Shown here: positions 8,712 to 25,847 of the stretch, piece by piece
Position numbering within the stretch: position 1 is the first letter of the stretch
Layout: each line of letters begins with the position of its first letter
Origin: Erysipelothrix larvae
GTDB taxonomy: Bacteria > Bacillota_I > Bacilli_A > Erysipelotrichales > Erysipelotrichaceae
Assembly (NCBI RefSeq): GCF_001545095.1
Contig: NZ_CP013213.1
Span: forward strand, 840,001 to 872,000
Reading direction: 5' to 3'
Length of the DNA: 32,000 nucleotides
Translations under genes and position numbers: made by a program
Notes under the pieces: generated by a model
What the model saw: the letters and a program-made list of their open reading frames with translations, nothing else
Database searches by the model: none
Told to the model about the DNA's origin: nothing

Positions 8712-9761
8712 CTAAAGTCTGTTTTCTTCAAGTCCTTTTGGAAAGGTGTTGATTACATCACATCCATCCGATGTGACGATTACCAAGTCTTCGATTCGAA
8801 TTCCGCCCAATCCTTTCACGTAAATTCCAGGTTCGATTGAAAAACACATGCCATCTTGAACAATCGTATCATTGGATGAAGATACATCCAAGGTTTCATG
8901 ACATTCAATCCCAATGCCATGGCCTGTTCGATGAATAAACTGTGCACCATATCCTGCCTGAGTGATTACATCCCGAGCTGCCTTATCAATATCTGACAAC
9001 TTAACCCCTGGTTTAACTGTATCTATTGCAGCAAGATTTGCCTTAAGCACAATGTGATAAAGTGTTTCAAGTTCAGGGTTTGAACCATAGAAAAAGGTGC
9101 GGGTCATATCTGAACAATAATGGTTATAAATACCACCCATGTCGACTAAGATTGCATCGCCTTTTTTTAACGTGCGGTTACTTGGGAGTCCATGGGGATT
9201 TGCAATGTTTTCTGAGAAAAGGACAATCGGTGTGAAACTTGGACCACTGAGTGGATGTGTACTTTGTTGTTTAAGAATTATGTCTGCAAGTTCACGCTCA
9301 CTGACGCCTTCTTTAAAAAGGGGAACGAGGGATGCCATGATGTCATCGTTAAGTTTTGATGCATGGCGCAAAGCGTCTTGTTCTTCTTTTGTTTTGATGG
9401 CACGTTGTGATTCAATTAAATAAGAACCATCAACAAAGGTTCTGCCTTGTCTAAAGAGCGGAAGTAAAAACTTTGCACTAAATCCGCCATCTACCGCAAT
9501 CGCTCCGGTTTGAGGGAGGGCATCACTTAAGAGCGTTTTAATATCGTCACTGTCTTTGAATGCCACTGTTTGAATTGATGTTTTATTCTCAAACATTTCA
9601 TTGAGAAACAGAACGGGTGCTTTGTCTTTATTAATAATAAGTGCTAAAAGACGTTCGCCCACATCAAATTCTTGACCAATGTAATAGTAGATAGAAATTG
9701 GGTTTGATATAATCATTGCGTCTTGAGATAAAGTATTTTTGAGATGATCAATGCGTGTCAT
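8712..9761 (-). CDS. M24B family Xaa-Pro aminopeptidase/dipeptidase
   Basis: 349 aa. Metal-ligand motifs of the pita-bread fold are present: VDMGGIYNHYCSDMTRT, HRTGHGIGIECHE and EPGIY..GLGGIRIED. SD AAAAGGAGA. Confidence 0.9.
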   Translation of the reverse strand: MTRIDHLKNTLSQDAMIISNPISIYYYIGQEFDVGERLLALIINKDKAPVLFLNEMFENKTSIQTVAFKDSDDIKTLLSDALPQTGAIAVDGGFSAKFLLPLFRQGRTFVDGSYLIESQRAIKTKEEQDALRHASKLNDDIMASLVPLFKEGVSERELADIILKQQSTHPLSGPSFTPIVLFSENIANPHGLPSNRTLKKGDAILVDMGGIYNHYCSDMTRTFFYGSNPELETLYHIVLKANLAAIDTVKPGVKLSDIDKAARDVITQAGYGAQFIHRTGHGIGIECHETLDVSSSNDTIVQDGMCFSIEPGIYVKGLGGIRIEDLVIVTSDGCDVINTFPKGLEENRL

Positions 9762-15479: not shown

Positions 15480-16886
15480 ATGGTAGTTGGAGATTTAGCT
15501 TTAGAGCTTGAAACAGTTGTGATTGGATCAGGTCCTGGTGGTTATGTTGCGGCAATTCGTGCAGCACAAATGGGACAAAAAGTCGCAATAATTGAAAAAG
15601 ATGCAATTGGTGGTGTATGTCTTAATGTTGGGTGTATTCCATCAAAAGCACTGATTAATGCAGGACATCGATTCCAAGAAGCGCAACACTCAGAAACATT
15701 TGGTGTCAGTGCTGAAGGTGTAAAACTTGATTTTACCCAAACTCAAAAATGGAAAGATGAAAAAGTTGTTAAAACACTGACTAAAGGTGTTGAAATGCTT
15801 TTAAAGAAAAACAAAGTTGAAATTATTCGTGGAACAGCATTCTTTAATGATACCAATCAACTGCGTGTTGTAACGGATGAAACAGCGCAATCGTATACCT
15901 TTAAACATGCAATTATCGCAACAGGAAGCCGTCCAATTGAAATTAAAGGCTTCAAATTTGGAAAACGCATTTTAGATTCAACCGGTGGCTTAAACCTTAA
16001 AGAAGTGCCTAAGAAATTGGTTGTTATTGGTGGCGGATATATTGGGAGTGAACTCGCGGGTGCTTATGCAAACTTAGGTGCAGAAGTGACGATTCTTGAA
16101 GGACTTCCATCAATTCTTGCACAATTTGATGCAGACATGACAAAACTTGCTGTTGATAACTTCAAGAAAAAAGGCGTTACGATTGTAACCAATGCTATGG
16201 CAAAAAATGCCGTTGAAAATGATAAGGGTGTTTCAGTAACCTATGAAGCTGAAGGGAAAGAACATACCATTGAAGCAGACTATGTTATGGTTACAGTAGG
16301 TCGTCGTCCAAATACCGATGATTTAGGACTTGAAGTAGCCCGTATTGAAACTACAGATCGTGGACTCATTAAAGTCGATAAACAAGGGCGTACGAGTCAA
16401 CATCATATTTTTGCAATCGGAGACATTACACCAGGGCTTGCTTTAGCACACAAAGCTTCCTATGAAGCGAAAATTGCTGCAGAAGCTATTTCTGGTAAAC
16501 CTGTAGAAATTGACTATGTTGCAATGCCTGCTGTATGTTTTACAGATCCAGAACTTGCAACTGTGGGACTTACTGAAAAAGAAGCAAAAGAACAAGGACT
16601 AAATGTTAAAGTATCGAAGTTCCCATTTGGAGCAAACGGTCGTGCATTGTCTCTCAATGCAACTGAAGGATTTGTTCGTCTAGTTTCTGAAGCAGATACA
16701 GGCTTGTTATTAGGTGGTCAAGTTGCAGGTGTCGGTGCATCAGATCTAATTGGTGAACTTGCTGTTGCAGTTGAATCACGTTTGAATGTCGAAGACATCG
16801 CATTAACAATCCATGCACACCCAACATTGGGTGAAACCATCATGGACGCAACTGAAATTGCACTTGGATTACCAATTCACGTCTAA
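15480..16886 (+). CDS. pdhD: dihydrolipoyl dehydrogenase E3
   Basis: 468 aa. FAD motif GSGPGGY, redox disulfide [16 protein letters not shown] motif GGGYIGSE, and a C-terminal HAHPTLGE. Confidence 0.95.
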
Positions 16887-16906
16887 TATTGATTTAAAAC
16901 ATTGAC

Positions 16907-16960
16907 AAAAGGAGCTTTTTGTAAATGGGAATTAACCCTCATTTCCAAGGCTCCTTTTTC
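16907..16960 (+). terminator. rho-independent terminator of the pdh operon
   Basis: AAAAGGAGC (16907-16915) pairs with GCTCCTTTT (16950-16958). An inner helix (AAATGGG with CCCtCATTT) lies inside, and a T-rich tail follows. Confidence 0.55.
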
Positions 16961-17391
16961 TATATATATAGGGAACTCACATCTTGCGTTAAAAAAGTCC
17001 CGATTCTTGTAGGAAAAAATCCAATTTTTGACTTCGATGGTCAAAATTGTTGAACCCTCCCGATCTATACATCAGACAAATGAGGGTGATTGATATCATA
17101 GTACTTCGATAAATTAATAACAATATGTGGTGAAAGGACAAAAATTGAGCATAAATCAGTATAAATGATTTCAATATCAGCAATAAATCAAGGTTATTGA
17201 CATAAAAATACTTGAATTTAATAAAATAATTTTTTCACATAAAGAAAGTGTTGTAAGGGGATCATTTTGGTATTGATGCGAAAGACACTGTATAAAAAAT
17301 ATTGATAAAGGCACTAAATAGTGTGTTTTGTGAACTTTCTGTGAAATCATCGATAATGAAACTGTTGATTTATAAGGACAAATTATGAAAC

Positions 17392-17406
17392 AATTTTCAG
17401 AATATT
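17392..17406. promoter_or_regulatory. CodY-box-like motif upstream of the peptide ABC operon
   Basis: AATTTTCAGAATATT matches the Firmicutes CodY consensus AATTTTCWGAAAATT at 14 of 15 positions. It lies about 45 nt upstream of the predicted -35. Chance matches are possible in AT-rich DNA. Confidence 0.3.
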
Positions 17407-17450
17407 TTTGTAAAAAAATTACATTCTTTTGAATTGTCTATGAAAAAGCG

Positions 17451-17478
17451 TTGACTTTTGATTTCAATAGTATATAAT
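17451..17478 (+). promoter_or_regulatory. candidate sigma-A promoter of the ABC importer operon
   Basis: TTGACT (17451-17456), 16-nt spacer, TATAAT (17473-17478). It lies 49 nt upstream of the ATG, with SD AAGGAGGAG. Confidence 0.5.
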
Positions 17479-17526
17479 AAATTTCATACAGAACGACAAC
17501 TGTATTGATTTCTAAGGAGGAGAATT

Positions 17527-19326
17527 ATGAAGAAATTACTAGCCGTATTTCTATCAGCACTTCTTGTCTTAACAGGATGCGGTGGCTCAGGTACTGCACT
17601 TGTTGAAGATCAAAGCGCTGAAACATTTACGATCGGTGTTCCTGCGGCAATAAACGGAAGTTTTGTTCCAGGTTTCACAAATAGCTCATATGATCTTTGG
17701 ATCATGAATGCATTGTATGGATATGGTGTTTACTATAACGACCGCGACACAGGTGAATATAAAGTAAACCCAACAGTAGCAACTGAAGAAGTTACTGAAA
17801 ATGCTGATGGTAGCAAGACATACACATTCACAATCAAAGATGGTCTTAAATATTCTGATGGTGAAGCTGTAACTGCTAAGGATTATGTATTCCAAGTATT
17901 ATGGCGTGCTTCAAAAGCATGGAACTCACAAGCAACTCTTGATGCTTCAGTTTGGAAAGAAATCGTTGGTTATGCAGACTATCAAGCTGGTGGAGAATTC
18001 ACTGGTGTTAAATTAGTTGATGACAAAACATTCTCATTAACAATCGATGGTGAATACCTACCTTACTTCTATGAAAAAGCTTATGTAGCTGCTTCACCTT
18101 ATCCATCACATGTTTACTTCCCAGGTATGAAGTTAAATGCTGATGGTAACAAGTTTGAAAATACAGATGCAGAAATTGTTGCTGCTGTAGATCAAGTTGC
18201 TACAAAAGAACGTTTTGCTCCAACAATCTCATGGGGACCTTACAAATTTGTAAGTAACCAAGACAGTGTTGTAACATTAGACCTAAATGCTGAATACGCT
18301 GGAAACTATGAAGGTGCTAAAGCAGAAATCGGTAAATTAGTATTCCGTGAAGTAGATTCATCACAAGCTGTTGATGCACTAAAACGTGGCGAAATTGATA
18401 TTTCTGCTGGTAACGTTGAGGGAGATTACATCAATGAAGTAAGAGCTGAAGATAGCGGCCTTGCATTCACAAGCTACCCACGTAACGGTTACGGAATGAT
18501 TTCATTCAAAACACAAAAAACTACAACTGCTGTTAAAGAAGTACGTCAAGCTGTTGGTTACTTACTAAACCGTAACGCATTTGTTGAATCAATCGCTGGT
18601 GGATATGGTAAAGTTGTTGACGGTCCTTACGGATTATCATCATGGTTCTACCAAGAACGTTCAGAAGAAATTACAAATGTTATTAATCAATATGCATTAA
18701 ACGTTTCTAAAGCTACTGAATTACTTGATAGCACTGACTATATTTACAATGAAGATGGATCAACTCCATGGGATTCAGCTAAGAGCACATACCGCTACAA
18801 TAAAGCTGGTGAGCAATTAGTAATCTACCATGCTGGTTCAGAAAACAACCAAGTTACAGACTTGATTAATAGTACTTTAGTACCAAATGCTAAAGAAGTT
18901 GGTATTAACTATGTTATCGACTACCTACCATTTAGTACTCTATTGAACTACTACTATGGATTAGAAGAAAACAAATATGGCGCATTCAACTTGGCTTCAG
19001 GATTTACTGCAATTTATGACCGTGAATCAGAATTGTCAATGTATGCAGATGTTGAGTCAATCAACACAAGCCAAATCAACAGCCCAGAACTTGATGCAAC
19101 AATCAACAAGATGAGATTCTTAGATTCTGCAGAACGTGATGCTTTCGCTGATGCATTTGTTGAGTATGTTGATCTATGGAATGATATCTTACCAGAACTT
19201 CCATTGTACTCAAATGAATACCATGACTTCTTCACAAAACGTGTAACTGGTTATGATGGTAAGATCACTTCACTAAGTGACTTCTCAGAAAACTTCGAGT
19301 ACCTACGTATTCAAAATGTAGATTAA
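17527..19326 (+). CDS. ABC transporter substrate-binding lipoprotein, family 5 (peptide/nickel, OppA/DppA-like)
   Basis: 599 aa. Signal peptide with lipobox LLVLTGC. Size and motif layout are those of cluster-C (SBP_bac_5) binding proteins. Confidence 0.9.
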   Translation: MKKLLAVFLSALLVLTGCGGSGTALVEDQSAETFTIGVPAAINGSFVPGFTNSSYDLWIMNALYGYGVYYNDRDTGEYKVNPTVATEEVTENADGSKTYTFTIKDGLKYSDGEAVTAKDYVFQVLWRASKAWNSQATLDASVWKEIVGYADYQAGGEFTGVKLVDDKTFSLTIDGEYLPYFYEKAYVAASPYPSHVYFPGMKLNADGNKFENTDAEIVAAVDQVATKERFAPTISWGPYKFVSNQDSVVTLDLNAEYAGNYEGAKAEIGKLVFREVDSSQAVDALKRGEIDISAGNVEGDYINEVRAEDSGLAFTSYPRNGYGMISFKTQKTTTAVKEVRQAVGYLLNRNAFVESIAGGYGKVVDGPYGLSSWFYQERSEEITNVINQYALNVSKATELLDSTDYIYNEDGSTPWDSAKSTYRYNKAGEQLVIYHAGSENNQVTDLINSTLVPNAKEVGINYVIDYLPFSTLLNYYYGLEENKYGAFNLASGFTAIYDRESELSMYADVESINTSQINSPELDATINKMRFLDSAERDAFADAFVEYVDLWNDILPELPLYSNEYHDFFTKRVTGYDGKITSLSDFSENFEYLRIQNVD

Positions 19327-19361
19327 TCCTCTTTCTTAGAGGCAATTAAATAAGTGGTGAT

Positions 19362-19400
19362 TAGGAAGTGATTGTTACAGTTACTTCCTATCATTTTGTT
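19362..19400 (+). terminator. intra-operon hairpin (partial terminator/mRNA stabiliser) after the binding-protein gene
   Basis: TAGGAAGT (19362-19369) pairs with ACTTCCTA (19383-19390) across a 13-nt loop, followed by TCATTTTGTT. It sits between the SBP and permease genes. Confidence 0.4.
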
Positions 19401-19416
19401 ATAAAGGAGAATTAAA

Positions 19417-20391
19417 ATGTTTAAATACCTAATAAAAAGATTAATTTCTCTTATTCCTGTTGTTATCATAATTTCGGTTCTTTTATTTACGTTTGTGCAA
19501 ATGATGCCAGGCGATCCTGTGGCAGTGATGCTTGGAAACAGTATTACAGATCCTGAAGAATATAAAGCTGCATATGAAGCAATGAGAGCAAGAATGGGAT
19601 TGGATGCAAGTTACTTCGAACAATACATCCGTTGGATTGTGAATTCATTAAAAGGTCAACTTGGATACTCAATCGCAATGAATAAACCTGTTACTGAAGT
19701 TGTTGCTCGTCCACTTAAGAACACAATAATCTTAAATGTTACCTCTTTAGTGTTGTCGTTTGTTATCTCTGTTTTTGTTGGGATTCGCTCCGCTGTTAAA
19801 AAGGGATCGTTTTTCGATAAATTCTGGCAAGTAACATCTATTGTAGGCGTGTCAATGCCGACACTGTTAATTGCTGTTTTACTAATATATGTTTTCTCAT
19901 TGAGATTGAACTTAGTTCCAATGAGTGGTATGCCAAGTATGATTGATGATGGTAGCCTTAGATACTATTTGGAACTTCTTCCATTTATGTTTTTACCATT
20001 ATTGACACTTACGCTTGGGTCTTTTGCGTCTACAATTCGATACATTCGAAATGCTATGCTGGATGTATTAAGCAGTGATTATATACGAACTGCACGAGCA
20101 AAAGGTGTATCGGGAAAAGTTGTTATTTACTCACATGCATTTAGAAATGCTTTGATTCCAGTTGTAACGATTGTTGCGGGATCAATACCGGGTATCTTTG
20201 GTGGTGCGGCGATTACTGAGCAAATCTTCGCATGGAATGGGATTGGACGTGTTCTTATTGCAGGGGTAAATAATCTTGACTATAACTTGATTCTTGCAAT
20301 GAATATGTTCTATGCAATTTTATCACTTGTTTCAAATATTATTATGGACGTTGGATATGCACTTGTTGATCCACGTGTCAAAATTGATTAG
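19417..20391 (+). CDS. ABC transporter permease, OppB/DppB-type
   Basis: 324 aa. N-terminus MFKYLIKRLISLIP.., six TM segments, EAA-like loop ..DYIRTARAKGVS...IYSHAFRNALIP. Confidence 0.9.
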   Translation: MFKYLIKRLISLIPVVIIISVLLFTFVQMMPGDPVAVMLGNSITDPEEYKAAYEAMRARMGLDASYFEQYIRWIVNSLKGQLGYSIAMNKPVTEVVARPLKNTIILNVTSLVLSFVISVFVGIRSAVKKGSFFDKFWQVTSIVGVSMPTLLIAVLLIYVFSLRLNLVPMSGMPSMIDDGSLRYYLELLPFMFLPLLTLTLGSFASTIRYIRNAMLDVLSSDYIRTARAKGVSGKVVIYSHAFRNALIPVVTIVAGSIPGIFGGAAITEQIFAWNGIGRVLIAGVNNLDYNLILAMNMFYAILSLVSNIIMDVGYALVDPRVKID

Positions 20392-20410
20392 TTAGGAGCC
20401 TTTTAAAATT

Positions 20411-22249
20411 ATGAGTGAAAAGAAAAAGAAAACTTCATTTTTAAAGACAATTACTAGTCTATTTTTACCAGGTGGGAGAAAAGATAACTTCGATGATGTT
20501 ATCGTAAGCCCAACTCAACAAATTGCACGTAATTTCTTTGAAAACAAACTGGGTGTTATTGGTCTTGTGGGATTTATTTTGTTATTCTCGTTGGTGTTTA
20601 TTTCAACATCACTTGATACAGGATATAATCCATATAATCATGAAACAACACTTGCAAACTTAGGACCAAGTACGAGCTATTTAAAAATTGATAAGAGCTT
20701 AAATGGTTCAAATGTTGACAAGATCGTTTCAGGTGTATCATTCAGTGTTGCACTTGATACGGATGGTAAACTTCATTTCTGGGGGAATAACCCAGCATCA
20801 AACGTTAATGTTGAACAAATCGTTGAACTTACAAAAGATAAAACGATTGTAGATATTGCAGCAGGTTCACGACACATTATCGCATTGACTAACACTGGTG
20901 ATATCATCGGTGCTGGTGAGAATAACTTTAACGAAGCAAGTTTTCCATCAGAAGTTAAGCAATCCTTAATGGGGGATACCATTAAGAAAATCGACGCCGG
21001 AGTTTCTGTATCTGTAATCTTAACAGGTAAAGGGCGTGTTATTGTATGGGGTAGTACTTTAGCGAATAATCTTGACACAATTCCAAACAGTGTCCAAGGT
21101 GAAATCGCAGATGTTACTGTTGCACCATTTAACTTAGTATTAACAATGAAAGATGGAACAATCACAACATTGGGAGTTCGTAGTAACGAAGTTGCTGCTG
21201 TATCTCCTGAGCTCGCAGCGGGTGAGTATAACATTGTTCAAACTGTAGTTTCAGAAAATACAGTAATTGCTCTTGATGATCAGGGTGTAGTTCATTCATG
21301 GGGAGCTTATGGTGAAGGCCGTAATGTTATACCTGAGTTTGACGCTAAAATTGTTGAAATCTATTCAACACGTTCAACATTCTTGGCACTTGATGAAAAC
21401 GGAACACTCTATACATGGGGTGCTGATCGTTTTGGACTTCTAAATATTCCTTCAAATGTATCTGCTAAGAACGTTGAAACTGTATTCGCAAATTTCTTCT
21501 CAGTTTACGCTGTAAATGATGATGATAGCATTACTGCTTGGGGACATGGCGGGTTCCGTTTTGGTTCTGATAGCCTTGGTCGTGATATGGGTGAACGTTT
21601 ACTTCATGGTGGACGAATTTCCTTAACTGTTGGTGCGGTTTCTGTGTTAATTTCTCTTATTATCGGAGTGATTGTAGGTCTTATTTCAGGATTCTACGGT
21701 GGATGGCTTGATAATCTATTGATGCGTATTGCAGAAGTTATTAACTCGTTTCCATTCCTCCCACTTGCGATTACCTTATCCGCATTCTTACCGCCATCTA
21801 TCTCGGAGAACCAACGTCTAACGTTAATTATGGTTATCTTAGGGATTCTATCGTGGCCAGGTATGGCGCGTCTTGTTCGTGGTCAAATTCTTGCAGAACG
21901 TGAGAAAGACTTCGTACTTGCTGCACGTGCGCTTGGATTAAAAGAAAACGTGATTATCATTAAACACATTCTTCCAAGTGTATTTAGTATGATAATTGTA
22001 AATATGACACTTGGGTATGCTTCAAGCTTACTTACTGAAGCAGGTCTTTCATACTTAGGGTTTGGAGTTAAACCTCCATCACCTTCATGGGGGAATATGC
22101 TTAGTGGTGTTATTAGTTCTGTTGTTATCGAACGTTACTGGTGGCAATGGGTTCTTCCAGCAGGATGTGTTCTTCTTGCTGCATTAACTGTAAACTTAAT
22201 TGGTGACGCACTTCGTGATGCTATTGATCCACGTGCAAATCAAAAGTAA
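20411..22249 (+). CDS. ABC transporter permease, OppC/DppC-type, with an inserted RCC1-like seven-bladed beta-propeller
   Basis: 612 aa, against about 300 aa for typical OppC. TM1 is at residues 46-66. Residues about 90-385 (nt 20678-21565) form seven repeats of about 42 aa with the pattern [IV]xx[IV]..G....[AL]L...G.[ILV]..WG. The canonical OppC sequence then resumes (SDSLGRDMGERLLHGGRISLTVGAVSVLISLIIG.., then the BPD_transp_1 core). Confidence 0.9.
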   Translation: MSEKKKKTSFLKTITSLFLPGGRKDNFDDVIVSPTQQIARNFFENKLGVIGLVGFILLFSLVFISTSLDTGYNPYNHETTLANLGPSTSYLKIDKSLNGSNVDKIVSGVSFSVALDTDGKLHFWGNNPASNVNVEQIVELTKDKTIVDIAAGSRHIIALTNTGDIIGAGENNFNEASFPSEVKQSLMGDTIKKIDAGVSVSVILTGKGRVIVWGSTLANNLDTIPNSVQGEIADVTVAPFNLVLTMKDGTITTLGVRSNEVAAVSPELAAGEYNIVQTVVSENTVIALDDQGVVHSWGAYGEGRNVIPEFDAKIVEIYSTRSTFLALDENGTLYTWGADRFGLLNIPSNVSAKNVETVFANFFSVYAVNDDDSITAWGHGGFRFGSDSLGRDMGERLLHGGRISLTVGAVSVLISLIIGVIVGLISGFYGGWLDNLLMRIAEVINSFPFLPLAITLSAFLPPSISENQRLTLIMVILGILSWPGMARLVRGQILAEREKDFVLAARALGLKENVIIIKHILPSVFSMIIVNMTLGYASSLLTEAGLSYLGFGVKPPSPSWGNMLSGVISSVVIERYWWQWVLPAGCVLLAALTVNLIGDALRDAIDPRANQK

Positions 22250-22286
22250 TTGGTTTGTATGAAACGATTAGATTGGAGTCGAAAAT

Positions 22287-23750
22287 ATGTCTGAAAAAAT
22301 TCTATTAAAGGTAGACCACTTACAAAAGTTCTTCCCATTGAAAAAGAAGAGTGTCTTTCAAAAAGAAGTTCAATATGTACGTGCAAATAAAGATATCTCA
22401 ATCAACATTCACGAAGGTGAAACATTAGGTCTTGTTGGTGAATCCGGATGTGGTAAATCTACATTTGGTCGTACATTGATTCAATTGTATGACCAAACTG
22501 GTGGAGTATCACTGTACTATGGTGACACGATAGAGTCTATGATGCCAAGTTATGTTGAAGCATGTTATAAATCTATTCCTAAAGTATTCAAAGGTTACAA
22601 ACATGATCTTGAGAAACTTAAAGAAATCGAAAAGTTGGCAGCTCAAGAAACAGGAACTTCAGCAGTTCATGTCGAAGAATTGCGCCATGCGAAAATTGAT
22701 TTTGAAAAGAAATACGGGAATATTCTGCGTTTAGCAGGTGGACTACTTGTTCACAGCAACTTAGATGAAGTGAAATCAGTGTTACTTGAAAAGTATCACA
22801 AAGGTTCTGCTGTATCAAAATATATTAAAGGGATTGAGTTTGAAACAACACGTTTAGAAGCACGTGGTGAAGATCCTTCGAAATCTACGAAGATTTCTGG
22901 ATTTAAGAGTAAACTTGATCAAGCTGAAAAAGAACTTGTTAGTGTTGATGAAAAAGTTGAAAAACTCAAAGATTCATTGCGTTCAAATCCTGAATTTGAT
23001 ACCTTCGAGTCAATGCTTGATAACGGAATTGATTTATCTTCATTAACGAAAACAGAAATGCGTGATTTACGTAAGGATTTACAAATCATCTTCCAAGATC
23101 CATATTCATCATTAGACCCACGGTTTACTGTAGGGAACATCATTGGTGAAGGTCTTGTTGCACATGGTATCTTCGACAGTAATAAGAGCGAAGGATACCA
23201 AGAGTATATTGAAGATATTATGCAAAAGTGTGGATTAGCACCAGAATATATTCACCGTTATCCACACCAATTCTCTGGGGGTCAACGTCAAAGAATTGGG
23301 ATTGCACGTGCTTTAGCACTTAATCCACGATTTATCGTATGCGATGAAGCGGTTAGTGCACTTGACGTATCCATTCAGTCTCAAGTTATCAACTTGCTTC
23401 AAGATTTAAAGGATGAAAATAATTTAACGTACTTGTTTATTACCCATGACTTGGGTGTTGTTCGTTTTATTAGTGATCGTATTGGTGTTATGTACTTTGG
23501 TAACTTAGTTGAATTAGCACCTGCTGAAGAAATCTTTGATAATCCTCAACACCCTTATACACGGCAATTGTTGAATGCAATTCCTAAAATGACAAAACCA
23601 GGTGAAATTATTGAACCGCTACCGCTCTATACCGAAAACGATGTCTTTGATTTTGGTTTCAAAGAAACAGGCGAAGCGGACAATGATTGGCATGAAGTGT
23701 CCCCAGGTCACTTTGTAGCGTGCCGTTTAAAGAATAAAGAAAGTGTCTAG
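22287..23750 (+). CDS. ABC transporter ATP-binding protein, OppF-type, with large insertion between Walker A and Q-loop
   Basis: 487 aa. Walker A GESGCGKST (residues 51-59), Q-loop IIFQDP (267-272), signature FSGGQRQR, Walker B IVCDEAVSALD, and a C-terminal oligo_HPY region (HPYT). About 165 extra K/E-rich residues (83-247) are absent from canonical OppF. Confidence 0.9.
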   Translation: MSEKILLKVDHLQKFFPLKKKSVFQKEVQYVRANKDISINIHEGETLGLVGESGCGKSTFGRTLIQLYDQTGGVSLYYGDTIESMMPSYVEACYKSIPKVFKGYKHDLEKLKEIEKLAAQETGTSAVHVEELRHAKIDFEKKYGNILRLAGGLLVHSNLDEVKSVLLEKYHKGSAVSKYIKGIEFETTRLEARGEDPSKSTKISGFKSKLDQAEKELVSVDEKVEKLKDSLRSNPEFDTFESMLDNGIDLSSLTKTEMRDLRKDLQIIFQDPYSSLDPRFTVGNIIGEGLVAHGIFDSNKSEGYQEYIEDIMQKCGLAPEYIHRYPHQFSGGQRQRIGIARALALNPRFIVCDEAVSALDVSIQSQVINLLQDLKDENNLTYLFITHDLGVVRFISDRIGVMYFGNLVELAPAEEIFDNPQHPYTRQLLNAIPKMTKPGEIIEPLPLYTENDVFDFGFKETGEADNDWHEVSPGHFVACRLKNKESV

Positions 23751-23762
23751 GAGGGTCAAAAT

Positions 23763-24707
23763 ATGAGTTTATTAGAAATTAAGAATCTACATACTTATTT
23801 TGATACACGTCGTGGACTTGTTAAAGCTGTAAACGGTGTTTCATTTAAAGTAGAAGAGGGTCGTACATTAGGGATTGTTGGTGAGTCTGGTTCTGGAAAG
23901 AGCCAAACTGCGATGTCGATTCTACAACTGTTCGAATCAAACCAAAAGATTTATGATGGTGAAATTATATTTGATGGTAAAGTGCTCTCAGATTTCAATG
24001 CATCTCAACTTCAAGAAATTCGTGGAAATGATATTTCAATGATTTTCCAAGAACCGATGACAAGCTTAAATCCTGTTTTTACGGTTGAAAAGCAAATCAA
24101 CGAAGTACTGATGCTTCACCAAAATATGAGTAAAAAAGAAGCTTCAGAACGTTCTTTAGAAATGCTGAAGTCTGTAAAAATTCCTAATGCTGAAGCAGTA
24201 TTAAAACAATACCCTCACCAATTATCTGGTGGGATGAGTCAACGTGTTATGATCGCGATGGCCCTTGCTTGTAATCCTAAGCTTTTGATTGCGGATGAGC
24301 CAACGACTGCGCTTGACGTTATCATCCAAGCTGAAATATTACGTCTTATGAATGATTTGAAGGACAAGTACCGTACCTCAATCCTCTTTATTACCCATGA
24401 CCTTGGCGTTATCAGTCAAATGGCAGATGATGTTATCGTTATGTACGGTGGGAAGATTGTTGAGGCAGGACCAATCCTTAAAATATTCGAAGAAGCAAAA
24501 CACCCATATACAAAACGCTTGATGGCTGCTTTCTTAAAGACAGACATTAGCCGTCGTAAGGGTGAAAAAGAAACAGAAGCAGACTTATACTCTGCTGAAA
24601 ACGAAGTATATGATTTCCATAACTTCCGTGAAAATGCAGTTGCAGATACAGATTGGTATGAAGTATCAGACGATCACTTCGTTGCATGTAATTTACTAGG
24701 AAAATAA
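23763..24707 (+). CDS. ABC transporter ATP-binding protein, OppD-type
   Basis: 314 aa. Walker A GESGSGKS, signature LSGGMSQR, Walker B LIADEPTTALD, C-terminal HPYT region. SD AGGAGGG overlaps the upstream stop. Confidence 0.9.
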   Translation: MSLLEIKNLHTYFDTRRGLVKAVNGVSFKVEEGRTLGIVGESGSGKSQTAMSILQLFESNQKIYDGEIIFDGKVLSDFNASQLQEIRGNDISMIFQEPMTSLNPVFTVEKQINEVLMLHQNMSKKEASERSLEMLKSVKIPNAEAVLKQYPHQLSGGMSQRVMIAMALACNPKLLIADEPTTALDVIIQAEILRLMNDLKDKYRTSILFITHDLGVISQMADDVIVMYGGKIVEAGPILKIFEEAKHPYTKRLMAAFLKTDISRRKGEKETEADLYSAENEVYDFHNFRENAVADTDWYEVSDDHFVACNLLGK

Positions 24708-24708
24708 C

Positions 24709-24894
24709 ATGGCTTTGTTCAAAAAAAGAAAAGACATGTATGATGAAGAAGAAATCGAAAAGAAGCTAAACGATATGGAGTTTGAAAAGGGCGATATGTT
24801 TGCAATGTTTATTGCTGCAATGATTACCTTTTTACCCGCTGTATTATTACTTCTTGGTCTATTCAGCCTCATCTTATGGATTATCTTTACATAA
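24709..24894 (+). CDS. small membrane protein translationally coupled to the ABC operon
   Basis: 61 aa. The ATG lies 1 nt after the OppD-type TAA. An acidic cytoplasmic head (KDMYDEEEIEKKLNDMEFEKGD) is followed by about 31 contiguous hydrophobic residues. The operon terminator follows it. Confidence 0.55.
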   Translation: MALFKKRKDMYDEEEIEKKLNDMEFEKGDMFAMFIAAMITFLPAVLLLLGLFSLILWIIFT

Positions 24895-24913
24895 AGTAAA
24901 CATTTTAATTCTC

Positions 24914-24946
24914 AAAACAGACGCTCCGGTGTCTGTTTTCCTTTTT
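24914..24946 (+). terminator. rho-independent terminator of the ABC importer operon
   Basis: AAAACAGAC (24914-24922) pairs with GTCTGTTTT (24931-24939), followed by CCTTTTT. Confidence 0.6.
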
Positions 24947-24961
24947 GATAAAGCCTTTCAC

Positions 24962-24990
24962 TTTAATGAACTTAAATTGTGTGGTATGAT
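24962..24990 (+). promoter_or_regulatory. candidate extended -10 promoter for the thiT leader
   Basis: TGG-TATGAT (24982-24990) with a weak -35 TTTAAT (24962-24967) at 17-nt spacing. Confidence 0.35.
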
Positions 24991-24997
24991 ATTTTTG

Positions 24998-25093
24998 TGA
25001 ACAGGGGTGCTGTAAAAGGCTGAGATAATACCCTTAATCACCTGATCTAAGACTAGACTATTATTAATAGTCAGAGCTAGCGTAGGGAGTTCA
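24998..25093 (+). promoter_or_regulatory. TPP (THI-box) riboswitch
   Basis: P1 is TGAAC (24998-25002) paired with GTTCA (25089-25093). Conserved cores are present: AGGGGTGC, GCTGAGA, ACCC, ACCTGATCT and CTAGCGTAGGGA. A ThiT gene lies directly downstream. Confidence 0.85.
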
Positions 25094-25110
25094 AACTTTT
25101 TAAGTTCCTG

Positions 25111-25137
25111 CGCCTCATATTATGGAGGTGTTTTTTT
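25111..25137 (+). terminator. riboswitch expression-platform hairpin (terminator and SD sequestor)
   Basis: CGCCTC (25111-25116) pairs with GAGGTG (25125-25130), which is the thiT SD. TTTTTTT (25131-25137) follows and abuts the ATG. Confidence 0.45.
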
Positions 25138-25677
25138 ATGAAAACAAAAGATCTGGTAAATATGTCTCTATTTGTTGCATTATATGTCGCACTAGAGTAT
25201 CTTGATTCAGCATTTAGTATCTTTAAGATGCCACAAGGCGGAAGCTTATCGTTTAGTATTCTTGCTATTATCTTTGCAAGTTACTTCTTTGGGATAAAAA
25301 AAGCAGTCGCCGTTACTGCTTTAGCATTTATTGTCCGATTTATGTTGGTTCCAATGTCCGTTGTACATCCAATGCAATTTTTACTGGACTATGTACTTGC
25401 GCCAGGTTGCTATGCCATTGTATCGGTGTTACCCGAGATAAAGGTGAAAAAGTTGCCTACAATTCCGTTATCCGTACTCATTGCAGGCTTTATGCAGTTT
25501 ATGTTTCATAATATCTCAGGATGGGTTTATTATGCACAATATTATGAAGGAAATCTATTTTGGGGAGTCCTTGCTTACAATGCAACCTATGTGATTCCGA
25601 CTGTAGTTGTTGGGTTTGTCGTTGTCATGTTAATGAAAGATCGAATGATGACAATCTTTCACGCCTTGAATCGATAA
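25138..25677 (+). CDS. thiT: ECF-transporter S component for thiamine (ThiT)
   Basis: 179 aa, 6 TM. Motifs MPQGGSLS, FLLDYVLAP and FHNISGWVYYAQY are typical of ThiT/YuaJ. It is controlled by the upstream TPP riboswitch. Confidence 0.85.
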   Translation: MKTKDLVNMSLFVALYVALEYLDSAFSIFKMPQGGSLSFSILAIIFASYFFGIKKAVAVTALAFIVRFMLVPMSVVHPMQFLLDYVLAPGCYAIVSVLPEIKVKKLPTIPLSVLIAGFMQFMFHNISGWVYYAQYYEGNLFWGVLAYNATYVIPTVVVGFVVVMLMKDRMMTIFHALNR

Positions 25678-25683
25678 AAAATA

Positions 25684-25731
25684 ATCGAAAAGATGTTGAT
25701 GTAAATGAATCGACATCTTTTGATTTTTTTT
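25684..25731 (+). terminator. rho-independent terminator after thiT
   Basis: ATCGAAAAGATGTTGAT (25684-25700) pairs with ATCGACATCTTTTGAT (25709-25724), followed by a T-run to 25731. Confidence 0.65.
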
Positions 25732-25847
25732 ATAGGATATCCCCTGGTTTTTCATCACTATTCTAAGAATTACCAAAAGGAATAAAGCCTGTTTATAGGC
25801 CTTTAAGCAAATCTATAAAAATTAAGTAAAAAAGATGAAGAATAGTG

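Follow-up and report, generated by a model that had tools for sequence, protein, structure and literature searches.

The 32,000-nucleotide (nt) stretch of DNA analysed here, referred to as the window, comes from Erysipelothrix larvae (contig NZ_CP013213.1, positions 840,001 to 872,000 of the forward strand) and carries an ATP-binding cassette (ABC) importer operon of the Opp/Dpp type, in which the familiar components are accompanied by a β-propeller in one permease, a helical insertion in one ATPase, and a small membrane protein encoded by the last gene. The question raised by this locus is whether the three add-ons belong together as parts of a specialised transporter, as the original prediction proposed, or came together by three independent accidents, and what they would contribute to uptake. 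On balance, the operon is believed to encode a six-component importer of the Opp/Dpp family (PepT-type), probably for peptides, which represents a conserved subfamily, with the propeller acting as an extra docking surface and with the ATPase pair having been swapped as a cassette. Conserved among gut Firmicutes, Erysipelothrix-like ones included, the subfamily has members in Erysipelotrichales, Anaerococcus, Sellimonas, and uncultured Firmicutes related to these.

The operon consists of six co-directional open reading frames (ORFs) on the + strand between 17527 and 24894, all of them where the original prediction had placed them, and its reading as a six-gene operon of Opp/Dpp type is borne out by the ORF listing and by Pfam. 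The genes, which encode a substrate-binding protein (SBP), two permeases, two ATPases, and a small protein, are separated by spacers of 90, 19, 37, 12, and 1 nt from 5' to 3'. They and the two inserted domains are as follows (lengths in amino acids, aa):

17527..19326, + strand: SBP gene, encoding a family-5 (cluster C) lipoprotein of 599 aa (SBP_bac_5, lipobox)
19417..20391, + strand: oppB, OppB-type permease of 324 aa (Pfam BPD_transp_1_N and BPD_transp_1)
20411..22249, + strand: oppC, OppC-type permease with propeller, 612 aa (Pfam OppC_N, RCC1_2, and BPD_transp_1)
20693..21550, + strand: seven-bladed RCC1/BLIP-II-like propeller in OppC, about residues 95-380 (AlphaFold2 model, RCC1_2)
22287..23750, + strand: oppF, OppF-type ATPase with insertion, 487 aa (NCBIfam, PDB)
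22518..23024, + strand: insertion of ~170 aa in OppF, about residues 78-246, between Walker A and Q-loop
23763..24707, + strand: oppD, OppD-type ATPase with a Cys-poor C-terminal domain, 314 aa (NCBIfam, PDB)
24709..24894, + strand: small membrane protein of 61 aa (ORF; conserved as last gene)

A family-5 SBP, two unlike permeases, and two unlike ATPases place the system in the Opp/Dpp (PepT, TC 3.A.5) family. The Pfam matches of OppB and OppC all exceed their cutoffs, and both ATPases match ABC_tran and have catalytic motifs that look intact in alignments; oligo_HPY is matched at 39.1 bits by OppF and at 26.1 bits by OppD, slightly below the cutoff of 27.1. All-vs-all clustering of the ORFs flanking the compared loci grouped nothing beyond the genes of the operon itself and antisense shadow ORFs, with no conserved peptidase, regulator, kinase, metallophore or nickel-enzyme gene, or cell-wall gene among the neighbours, and the six genes are therefore taken as the unit.

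Whether the add-ons travel together was assessed in loci gathered by a genome scan with a full-length OppC alignment and by a metagenome scan with a five-sequence alignment of the propeller only, with E. rhusiopathiae, Anaerorhabdus, and one metagenome contig looked up separately (individual loci are cited below by L numbers). The genome scan yielded ordinary OppC genes at 73 of 80 loci, which were used as outgroups and for gene order, and every ORF was classed against the window proteins, with OppC divided into propeller and core and OppF into core and insertion. Propeller-OppC loci extending past the last ATPase gene were regarded as scorable; there are 27 of these including the window, a count that contains near-duplicates and corresponds to about 15 distinct lineages, from Erysipelothrix rhusiopathiae, Anaerorhabdus, Anaerococcus, Sellimonas, and metagenomes. 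An inserted OppF (460-561 aa) and a small gene in last position are present in 27/27 of them, across at least three orders, and the window itself has the three add-ons together with the small gene last. The insertion matches that of the window in all 27 except Sellimonas L007, where it lies at the same alignment site, and the co-occurrence persists where the propeller has fallen to 24-28% identity to that of the window. The SBP gene is kept in 25 of the 26 scorable loci other than the window. Co-inheritance in every scorable locus argues, as the original prediction had supposed, for a specialised Opp subfamily and against three accidents.

The add-ons can nevertheless be separated outside the propeller loci. 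An inserted OppF occurs with an ordinary OppC of 295-300 aa in Atopostipes suicloacalis, in the second operon of Erysipelothrix sp. HDW6C, and on two further contigs; the loci L081-L083 and L167 have the inserted OppF and neither propeller nor small gene, and L166 has it without a propeller in a locus that ends before the tail. Conversely, a Mollicutes metagenome-assembled genome (L008) possesses the small gene together with an OppC of 344 aa and an OppF of 368 aa, without insertion or propeller, and is sister to the propeller clade in the OppB (100%) and OppC (98%) trees. The original prediction had named independent and sporadic occurrence of the add-ons as the outcome that would speak against it; independence is what these loci display, and sporadic occurrence is not seen. 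Because L008 holds this sister position with the small gene alone, the small subunit was likely acquired first, followed by the propeller and the insertion.

The propeller is recognised by RCC1_2 at 89.4 bits (cutoff 22), with RLD also matched, so that OppC has the Pfam domain order OppC_N, RCC1_2/RLD, BPD_transp_1. An AlphaFold2 model of OppC built from a 25-sequence alignment (mean predicted local distance difference test score, pLDDT, 82.8) has the first transmembrane helix (TM1) at residues 46-68, a helical core at 393-611, and between them, from about residue 100 to 380, seven blades of three strands each with pLDDT >90. The domain sits in the TM1-TM2 loop immediately before the GxD..GRD motif that precedes TM2, a motif that reads GSD in the window and GTD in most homologues. 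The best Foldseek matches of the propeller are to BLIP-II (3qhy, 3qi0, 1jtd; TM-score 0.75-0.79, root-mean-square deviation 2.6-3.1, 21-22% identity), followed by UVR8, RPGR, and HERC2, and the transmembrane core resembles E. coli DppC/OppC and the M. tuberculosis homologues; in the PDB comparison the core matches solved OppC and DppC chains at E 2e-48. As the TM1-TM2 loop is periplasmic in solved homologues and OppC homologues have an N-in topology, the propeller is predicted to lie outside the cell. The activities of the prototypes (guanine-nucleotide exchange and β-lactamase binding) are not carried over by the fold at 14-22% identity, and guanine-nucleotide exchange would in any case be implausible at an extracellular location.

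The propeller-OppC architecture is present in >1000 homologue clusters at 90% identity in an indexed search, with Erysipelothrix spp., Anaerorhabdus, and 'Firmicutes HGW-19' as the named carriers, and it appears to be widespread within E. rhusiopathiae, where it was seen on 109 contigs. The OppC TM1-TM2 loop of L052 and L057 (Bdellovibrio-type) and L079 (cyanobacterial) carries propeller-less insertions of 70-100 aa, which suggests that this loop is a recurrent site for added extracytoplasmic sequence; a 608-aa 'OppC' in L059 was rejected as a further large insertion, being an over-extended ORF in a high-GC contig. The propeller-only metagenome scan also picked up related RCC1-type propellers in giant proteins of 2900-5400 aa and in clusters of 300-700-aa proteins (L112, L113, L129, L134, L137, and others), none of which matched any protein of this transporter.

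The insertion in the nucleotide-binding domain (NBD) claimed by the original prediction is real and lies between the Walker A motif and the Q-loop of OppF. In the structural model (pLDDT 84.7) it forms four helices of ~30 residues (88-120, 127-155, 159-192, and 201-229) placed between the strand that follows Walker A and a short 'GIDL' strand that precedes the Q-loop. Every inserted OppF carries it at the same site with the common motifs YYG..(M/A)P.Y, (R/K/Q/H)(L/I/V)..GG(L/F), and F..[FYVL](E/D/V)...(D/G).G(I/V)DL, and this single site with shared motifs indicates that the insertion arose once. No solved ABC ATPase with a matching module was found, as Foldseek matched NBD cores only (query-normalised TM-score ≤0.55), and the insertion profile gave only coiled-coil noise against the PDB (E ≥0.015) and no match in NCBIfam. 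Among 1.84 billion representatives searched with HMMER the profile matched 11 clusters, all of them OppF-like proteins or fragments with the module at the same position, and neither there nor in the PDB was a homologue detectable in another protein context.

In the 61-aa protein a charged N-terminal half is followed by an E-K-G-D motif and then by a hydrophobic C-terminal helix in which a Pro is conserved, and its ORF begins 1 nt past the OppD stop. Neither Pfam nor NCBIfam matched it, and an indexed protein search returned the query alone; its homologues were found by a hidden Markov model (HMM) on six-frame ORFs of the fetched loci. The motif (L/F)EKGD..AM.(I/L)AA....(L/F)P is kept across orders, the gene always stands directly behind whichever ATPase gene is last, and gene callers predict the protein in E. 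rhusiopathiae (62 aa), Anaerorhabdus (63 aa), and L168 (62 aa). In an Anaerococcus-like contig (L095, 11498-13339) the inserted OppF and the small protein are read as one ORF of 613 aa, owing either to a natural fusion or to a frameshift from sequencing; a true fusion would argue for physical association of OppF with the small protein. Near a propeller-less opp operon of 'Firmicutes UBA5500' (L010, 6694-6876), a 60-aa ORF gives a weak match to the small-protein HMM (E 0.008), and the family may thus reach beyond the loci seen here.

The two ATPases are correctly ordered F before D, as the original prediction had stated: protein 4 scores 312 bits for OppF and 184 for OppD, protein 5 scores 330 bits for OppD and 228 for OppF (NCBIfam), and the PDB matches agree. 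This order is not, however, part of the specialised design, since 22/27 propeller loci are arranged A-B-C-D-F-small, and the outgroup loci with adjacent ATPase genes all have D then F except L001. Among propeller loci the F-D order is confined to the Erysipelothrix-related lineage (the window, L001 and L084 from the same organism, E. rhusiopathiae, and L168, as well as the truncated L085), and the same cassette occurs in propeller-less operons. Distance-based neighbour-joining (NJ) trees with 500 bootstraps, which include the propeller-less F-D operons L081 and L083 and the Erysipelotrichaceae locus L006, gave the following support for three groupings:

OppF tree: window + L001 + L081 + L083, 100%; all propeller operons + L008, 0%; window + L001 + L006, 0%
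OppD tree: window + L001 + L081 + L083, 100%; all propeller operons + L008, 0%; window + L001 + L006, 0%
OppB tree: window + L001 + L081 + L083, 0%; all propeller operons + L008, 100%; window + L001 + L006, 82%
OppC tree: window + L001 + L081 + L083, 0%; all propeller operons + L008, 98%; window + L001 + L006, 64%

Pairwise identities follow the same division, the window OppD being 72-74% identical to those of L081/L083 vs 64% to that of L006, and the window OppC core 39-40% identical to those of L081/L083 vs 71% to that of L006. The incongruent trees and identities indicate that the ATPase pair is a cassette with its own history, and sharing of this cassette with propeller-less opp operons explains the 'inverted' order. 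The cysteines divide along the same line. At least four Cys follow the HPYT motif in the D-F-type ATPases, in L008, and in most ordinary relatives, whereas both subunits of the F-D cassette have 0-1 Cys and an acidic replacement segment, with one Cys each in the OppD and OppF of the window. In DppD and DppF of E. coli, a [4Fe-4S] cluster is held by four Cys (PMC12136057). The window OppD and OppF lack this four-Cys motif, three of the four Cys being lost relative to E. coli DppD/DppF, and the site is not universal in Opp/Dpp importers. The window thus departs from the D-F order with Cys-containing ATPases that is usual in its subfamily, and its F-D pair is presumably free of an iron-sulfur cluster. 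In the proposed history, an ancestral Cys-containing D-F pair would have been replaced in the window's lineage by a Cys-less F(insert)-D cassette; the mosaic itself demonstrates that opp operons can exchange an ATPase pair as a cassette. The Cys-less cassette spans 22287-24707 in the window and is also found in L001, L081, L083, L164, and L166-L168, with the propeller-less Erysipelothrix and Atopostipes operons joined at 100% bootstrap. Erysipelothrix and Atopostipes are facultative anaerobes, and the loss of Cys may be an oxygen-related adaptation.

The working of the importer can be proposed largely by homology. The lipid-anchored SBP would capture the substrate and dock on the OppB/OppC heterodimer, with OppD lying under OppB, OppF under OppC, and ATP hydrolysed by both, and the alternating-access cycle is presumably that of the E. 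coli and M. tuberculosis type I importers. In E. coli, DppC pairs with DppF and DppB with DppD, and the periplasmic TM1-TM2 regions contact the SBP, that of DppB forming a 'scoop' that enters the SBP cleft (PMC12136057). The OppC-OppF pairing carried over from these homologues would put the propeller and the helical module on the same half-transporter, on opposite sides of the membrane. The propeller would then flank the SBP docking site as an additional extracellular docking surface that holds or orients the large divergent SBPs, or another surface protein; a docking role is favoured because the SBPs of propeller operons form one clade and are large and divergent, as described below. The helical module of OppF and the small protein would be regulatory or stabilising elements, the latter as a single-pass sixth subunit of ~60 aa whose gene always comes last and is coupled in translation to the one before it. 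In a bolder form of this mechanism, which is put forward only tentatively, the propeller would be a second extracellular capture or docking site (for a protease, a penicillin-binding-protein-like enzyme, a host protein, or the importer's own SBP) and, together with the OppF module and the mini-subunit, would couple the outside to control of the ATPase, which would make the C-F half a dedicated regulatory axis, not known from any Opp, Dpp, or Nik system studied, and the system the first type I ABC importer with a permease propeller.

Expression of the six genes would start from one conserved promoter and be attenuated by a hairpin after the SBP gene. The signals are as follows:

17392..17406, + strand: candidate CodY-box-like sequence AATTTTCAGAATATT, with one mismatch to AATTTTCWGAAAATT, upstream of the -35 box
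17451..17478, + strand: sigma-70-type promoter TTGACT-16-TATAAT, the best match (11/12) in 16800-25800
17486..17505, + strand: inverted repeat ATACAG-N8-CTGTAT at the predicted mRNA 5' end, directly after the -10 box
19362..19390, + strand: terminator-like hairpin of 13 pairs followed by TCATTTTGTT, between the SBP gene and oppB
24914..24939, + strand: intrinsic-terminator-like hairpin of 11 pairs followed by CCTTTTTGAT, which ends the operon

Promoter-like matches overall are no more frequent than expected by chance (32 vs 33.4). TTGAC(T/A) and TATAAT are kept upstream of the orthologous operons in L001 and E. rhusiopathiae. The inverted repeat is likewise kept, with N11 spacing in L001 and N10 in E. 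rhusiopathiae, and such variation in spacing speaks more for a 5' stem-loop in the RNA than for an operator bound by protein, so that the repeat is probably a stem-loop of the mRNA leader. The CodY-like box is the sole match in the window, where at least one match with ≤2 mismatches arose in 38/100 shuffles; a box with two mismatches stands at a similar upstream position in L001 (background 0.033 hits per kb), and the aligned stretch of E. rhusiopathiae (L164 among the leaders compared) reads TATTTTCATAAAATT, which is CodY-like with two mismatches. At 640 nt (16887-17526), the spacer that separates lpd from the SBP gene is unusually long, and no Rfam match, riboswitch, T-box, or long ORF was found in it. 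Early in this spacer, at ~16902-16952, there is a hairpin resembling the pdh terminator (AAAGGAGC...GCTCCTTTTT).

The claim of a single transcription unit is plausible, the predicted promoter and terminator both being present, and is qualified by the strong hairpin between the SBP gene and oppB, which has a T-rich tail and had not been part of the original prediction. A strong predicted stem occurs in this spacer at 11/11 loci examined (the window and ten others). Only 26 nt separate the hairpin at 19362-19390 from the oppB start, too few to accommodate a promoter downstream of it, and the later genes would therefore depend on read-through. The conserved hairpin points to a graded expression with an excess of SBP and the rest supplied by read-through.

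The nature of the substrate rests mainly on the SBP, which begins with MKKLLAVFLSALLVLTGC and has the lipobox LTGC. It matches SBP_bac_5 (PF00496) at 148.7 bits (cutoff 32.4), and its nearest solved chain is 9p48 'OppA' (E 2.9e-28). The S. aureus Opp4 system (NF045467, NF045472, and NF045476) provides the nearest curated models for the SBP, OppB, and the OppC core, which score 125.9 bits against Opp4A (cutoff 650), 290.6 against Opp4B (cutoff 450), and 302 against Opp4C (cutoff 350) in NCBIfam; the 278-position Opp4C model covers only residues 377-608, and the propeller has no counterpart in it. An NJ tree that did not include L008 and L081 unites the SBPs of propeller operons in a single clade (100% bootstrap). 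These proteins are divergent and, at 594-774 aa, large; SBP_bac_5 is internally expanded and the N-terminus extended, and no additional Pfam domain was found in them as a counterpart to the propeller. Tandem SBP genes of ~740 aa each are found in the Anaerococcus-type loci L003, L094, L095, and L098, and the SBP of L003 has an N-terminal extension of ~140 aa ahead of SBP_bac_5 with no further Pfam domain. The proximity to Opp4A/B/C and OppA, the tandem SBPs in Anaerococcus, and the candidate CodY-like box in three leaders make peptides most probably the substrate. Since the equivalog cutoffs are missed, no substrate is assigned, in agreement with the original prediction that it could not be read from the sequence.

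The same architecture might instead serve a non-peptide substrate brought in with the help of the propeller, such as nickel or a metallophore, an opine, glutathione, a muropeptide, or an oligosaccharide. The SBPs are far from canonical OppA, with SBP_bac_5 scores of 82-149 bits in propeller operons vs 318 bits for the plain-type SBP of L081, and the SBP of the window has the murein-peptide binder MppA among its PDB matches and is also matched by NikA-type models. The closest fold to the propeller, BLIP-II, binds β-lactamases, which have a penicillin-binding-protein-like fold, and this gives a hint of cell-wall enzymology; in addition, another opp operon, of ordinary appearance, is retained in Erysipelothrix sp. 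HDW6C, which fits non-redundant roles. A non-peptide substrate seems unlikely, however, given that the best matches are Opp4A, Opp4B, Opp4C, and a chain named OppA, that tandem SBP paralogues are typical of peptide systems, that metallophore, nickel-enzyme, and cell-wall genes are not conserved nearby, and that the candidate CodY-like box fits nitrogen or peptide nutrition.

It is more improbable still that the system is chiefly a sensor or transceptor, in which the propeller would bind an external protein or ligand and signal through OppC to the OppF module to recruit or control a cytoplasmic partner, with transport being secondary. Such a role would be in keeping with the location of both large add-ons on the C-F half, at opposite faces of the membrane, with their joint presence in every scorable propeller locus and the conserved motifs that suggest specific interactions, and with the related propellers in giant surface proteins (L112-L137). 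Nevertheless, the operon has no regulator or kinase among conserved neighbours, the OppF module is present with an ordinary OppC in L081, L083, L166, and L167 and so does not need the propeller, the catalytic motifs of both ATPases look intact, and the module has no detectable homologue in the other protein contexts searched. The view that the add-ons are lineage baggage without specific function and that the 61-aa ORF is no real subunit, which could appeal to a small ORF that is known from sequence alone and has no family match and to related, working-looking operons in which each add-on is missing, is hardly credible when the add-ons are kept in all 27 scorable loci of at least three orders while propeller identity drops so far, the small protein keeps its motif and position whatever the ATPase order, and both propeller and insertion are confidently folded with invariant non-glycine positions.

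Several points weigh against the preferred reading of a peptide importer with an added docking surface and an exchanged ATPase pair. The SBPs of Gram-positives are already lipid-tethered, and the need for an extra docking domain is thus not obvious; the contacts proposed for the propeller, the small protein, and the OppF module are predictions; and the insertion occurs without the small gene and the small gene without the insertion, which indicates no mutual dependence. With regard to the substrate, every curated equivalog cutoff is missed (e.g., Opp4A at 126 vs 650 bits), NikA-type models match the SBP, if weakly (1e-13 to 1e-14), and the candidate CodY-like box has little statistical weight when the window is taken by itself. 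As to the cassette and the direction proposed for its transfer, the trees are distance-based and not maximum likelihood, and the F-D clade nests inside the inserted-OppF clade, yet in the OppD tree it is placed outside the D-F clade (63% bootstrap).

Compared with known systems, the importer shares its family-5 SBP, OppB/OppC heterodimer, and OppD/OppF heterodimer with oligo_HPY C-terminal domain with E. coli OppABCDF/DppABCDF and M. tuberculosis OppABCD/DppABCD (8z21, 8z1v-8z1z, 8j5q, 8wd9), and its OppC and OppF cores superpose on 8z1w_B, 8z21_B, and 8z21_D (TMt 0.70-0.80), whereas the propeller of ~290 aa, the OppF insertion of ~170 aa, the sixth small gene, and the F-D order set it apart from them. 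BLIP-II of Streptomyces is likewise a compact seven-bladed, three-stranded propeller of the RCC1_2 type, but it is a free secreted β-lactamase binder and the propeller of the window is an internal domain of a membrane permease. The P2 loop of MalF in MalFGK2 is an extracytoplasmic domain in a permease loop of a type I importer, near the SBP docking site, and offers an analogy of role only, as it has an Ig-like fold and belongs to another loop and another transporter family. The OppD/OppF models of Mycoplasma mycoides/JCVI-syn (MMSYN1_0167, 561 positions; MMSYN1_0168, 649) are similarly enlarged relative to the ~330 positions of E. coli, and residues 24-232 of the window OppF are colinear with positions 14-224 of MMSYN1_0167 and 11-213 of MMSYN1_0168. 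The insertion alone gave no significant match to the Mycoplasma models, and the inserts therefore cannot be called homologous; mycoplasmas, moreover, have both of their ATPases enlarged and are not known to possess a propeller.

A literature search on RCC1 with Opp/ABC permeases, on Erysipelothrix opp, on the Mycoplasma OppF insertion, and on 9P48 found nothing relevant. To our knowledge, no studied type I ABC importer has a propeller in a permease loop, and we know of none with a helical domain between Walker A and Q-loop of one ATPase or with a dedicated small sixth subunit. Small accessory subunits occur in other pumps, including AcrZ, KdpF, and CydX. Opp-type importers feed amino-acid-auxotrophic Firmicutes and in many species also carry signalling peptides. 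If the extras control docking or gating, they would represent a new regulatory layer for this class of transporter and a surface-exposed, lineage-specific target, which is of relevance as the subfamily includes the animal and human pathogen E. rhusiopathiae and occurs in Anaerococcus, Sellimonas, and Anaerorhabdus.

The surroundings of the operon differ between loci. In a JGI metagenome (L168, 7770-12469), genes for two large surface proteins with Flg_new repeats stand behind the F-D propeller operon; one protein, of 908 aa, is a fusion with Peptidase_S41, and the other, of >898 aa, a fusion with SBP_bac_5. This single instance may hint that surface proteolysis and uptake are linked. In the window, an M24 Xaa-Pro-type peptidase gene (8712-9761, - strand) lies ~8 kb upstream, and its adjacency to the operon is not kept in other loci. 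The operon is preceded by the 3' end of a pyruvate-dehydrogenase operon (lplA, pdhA, pdhB, pdhC, and lpd) and followed by thiT (25138-25677) with its own leader and then by a ribosomal RNA operon. The thiT leader contains a thiamine pyrophosphate (TPP)-riboswitch-like element at 24993-25105, which at 46.8 bits stays below the Rfam gathering score of 54.3 and is hence missed by a default scan, and which covers the full model with an E-value of 2e-8.

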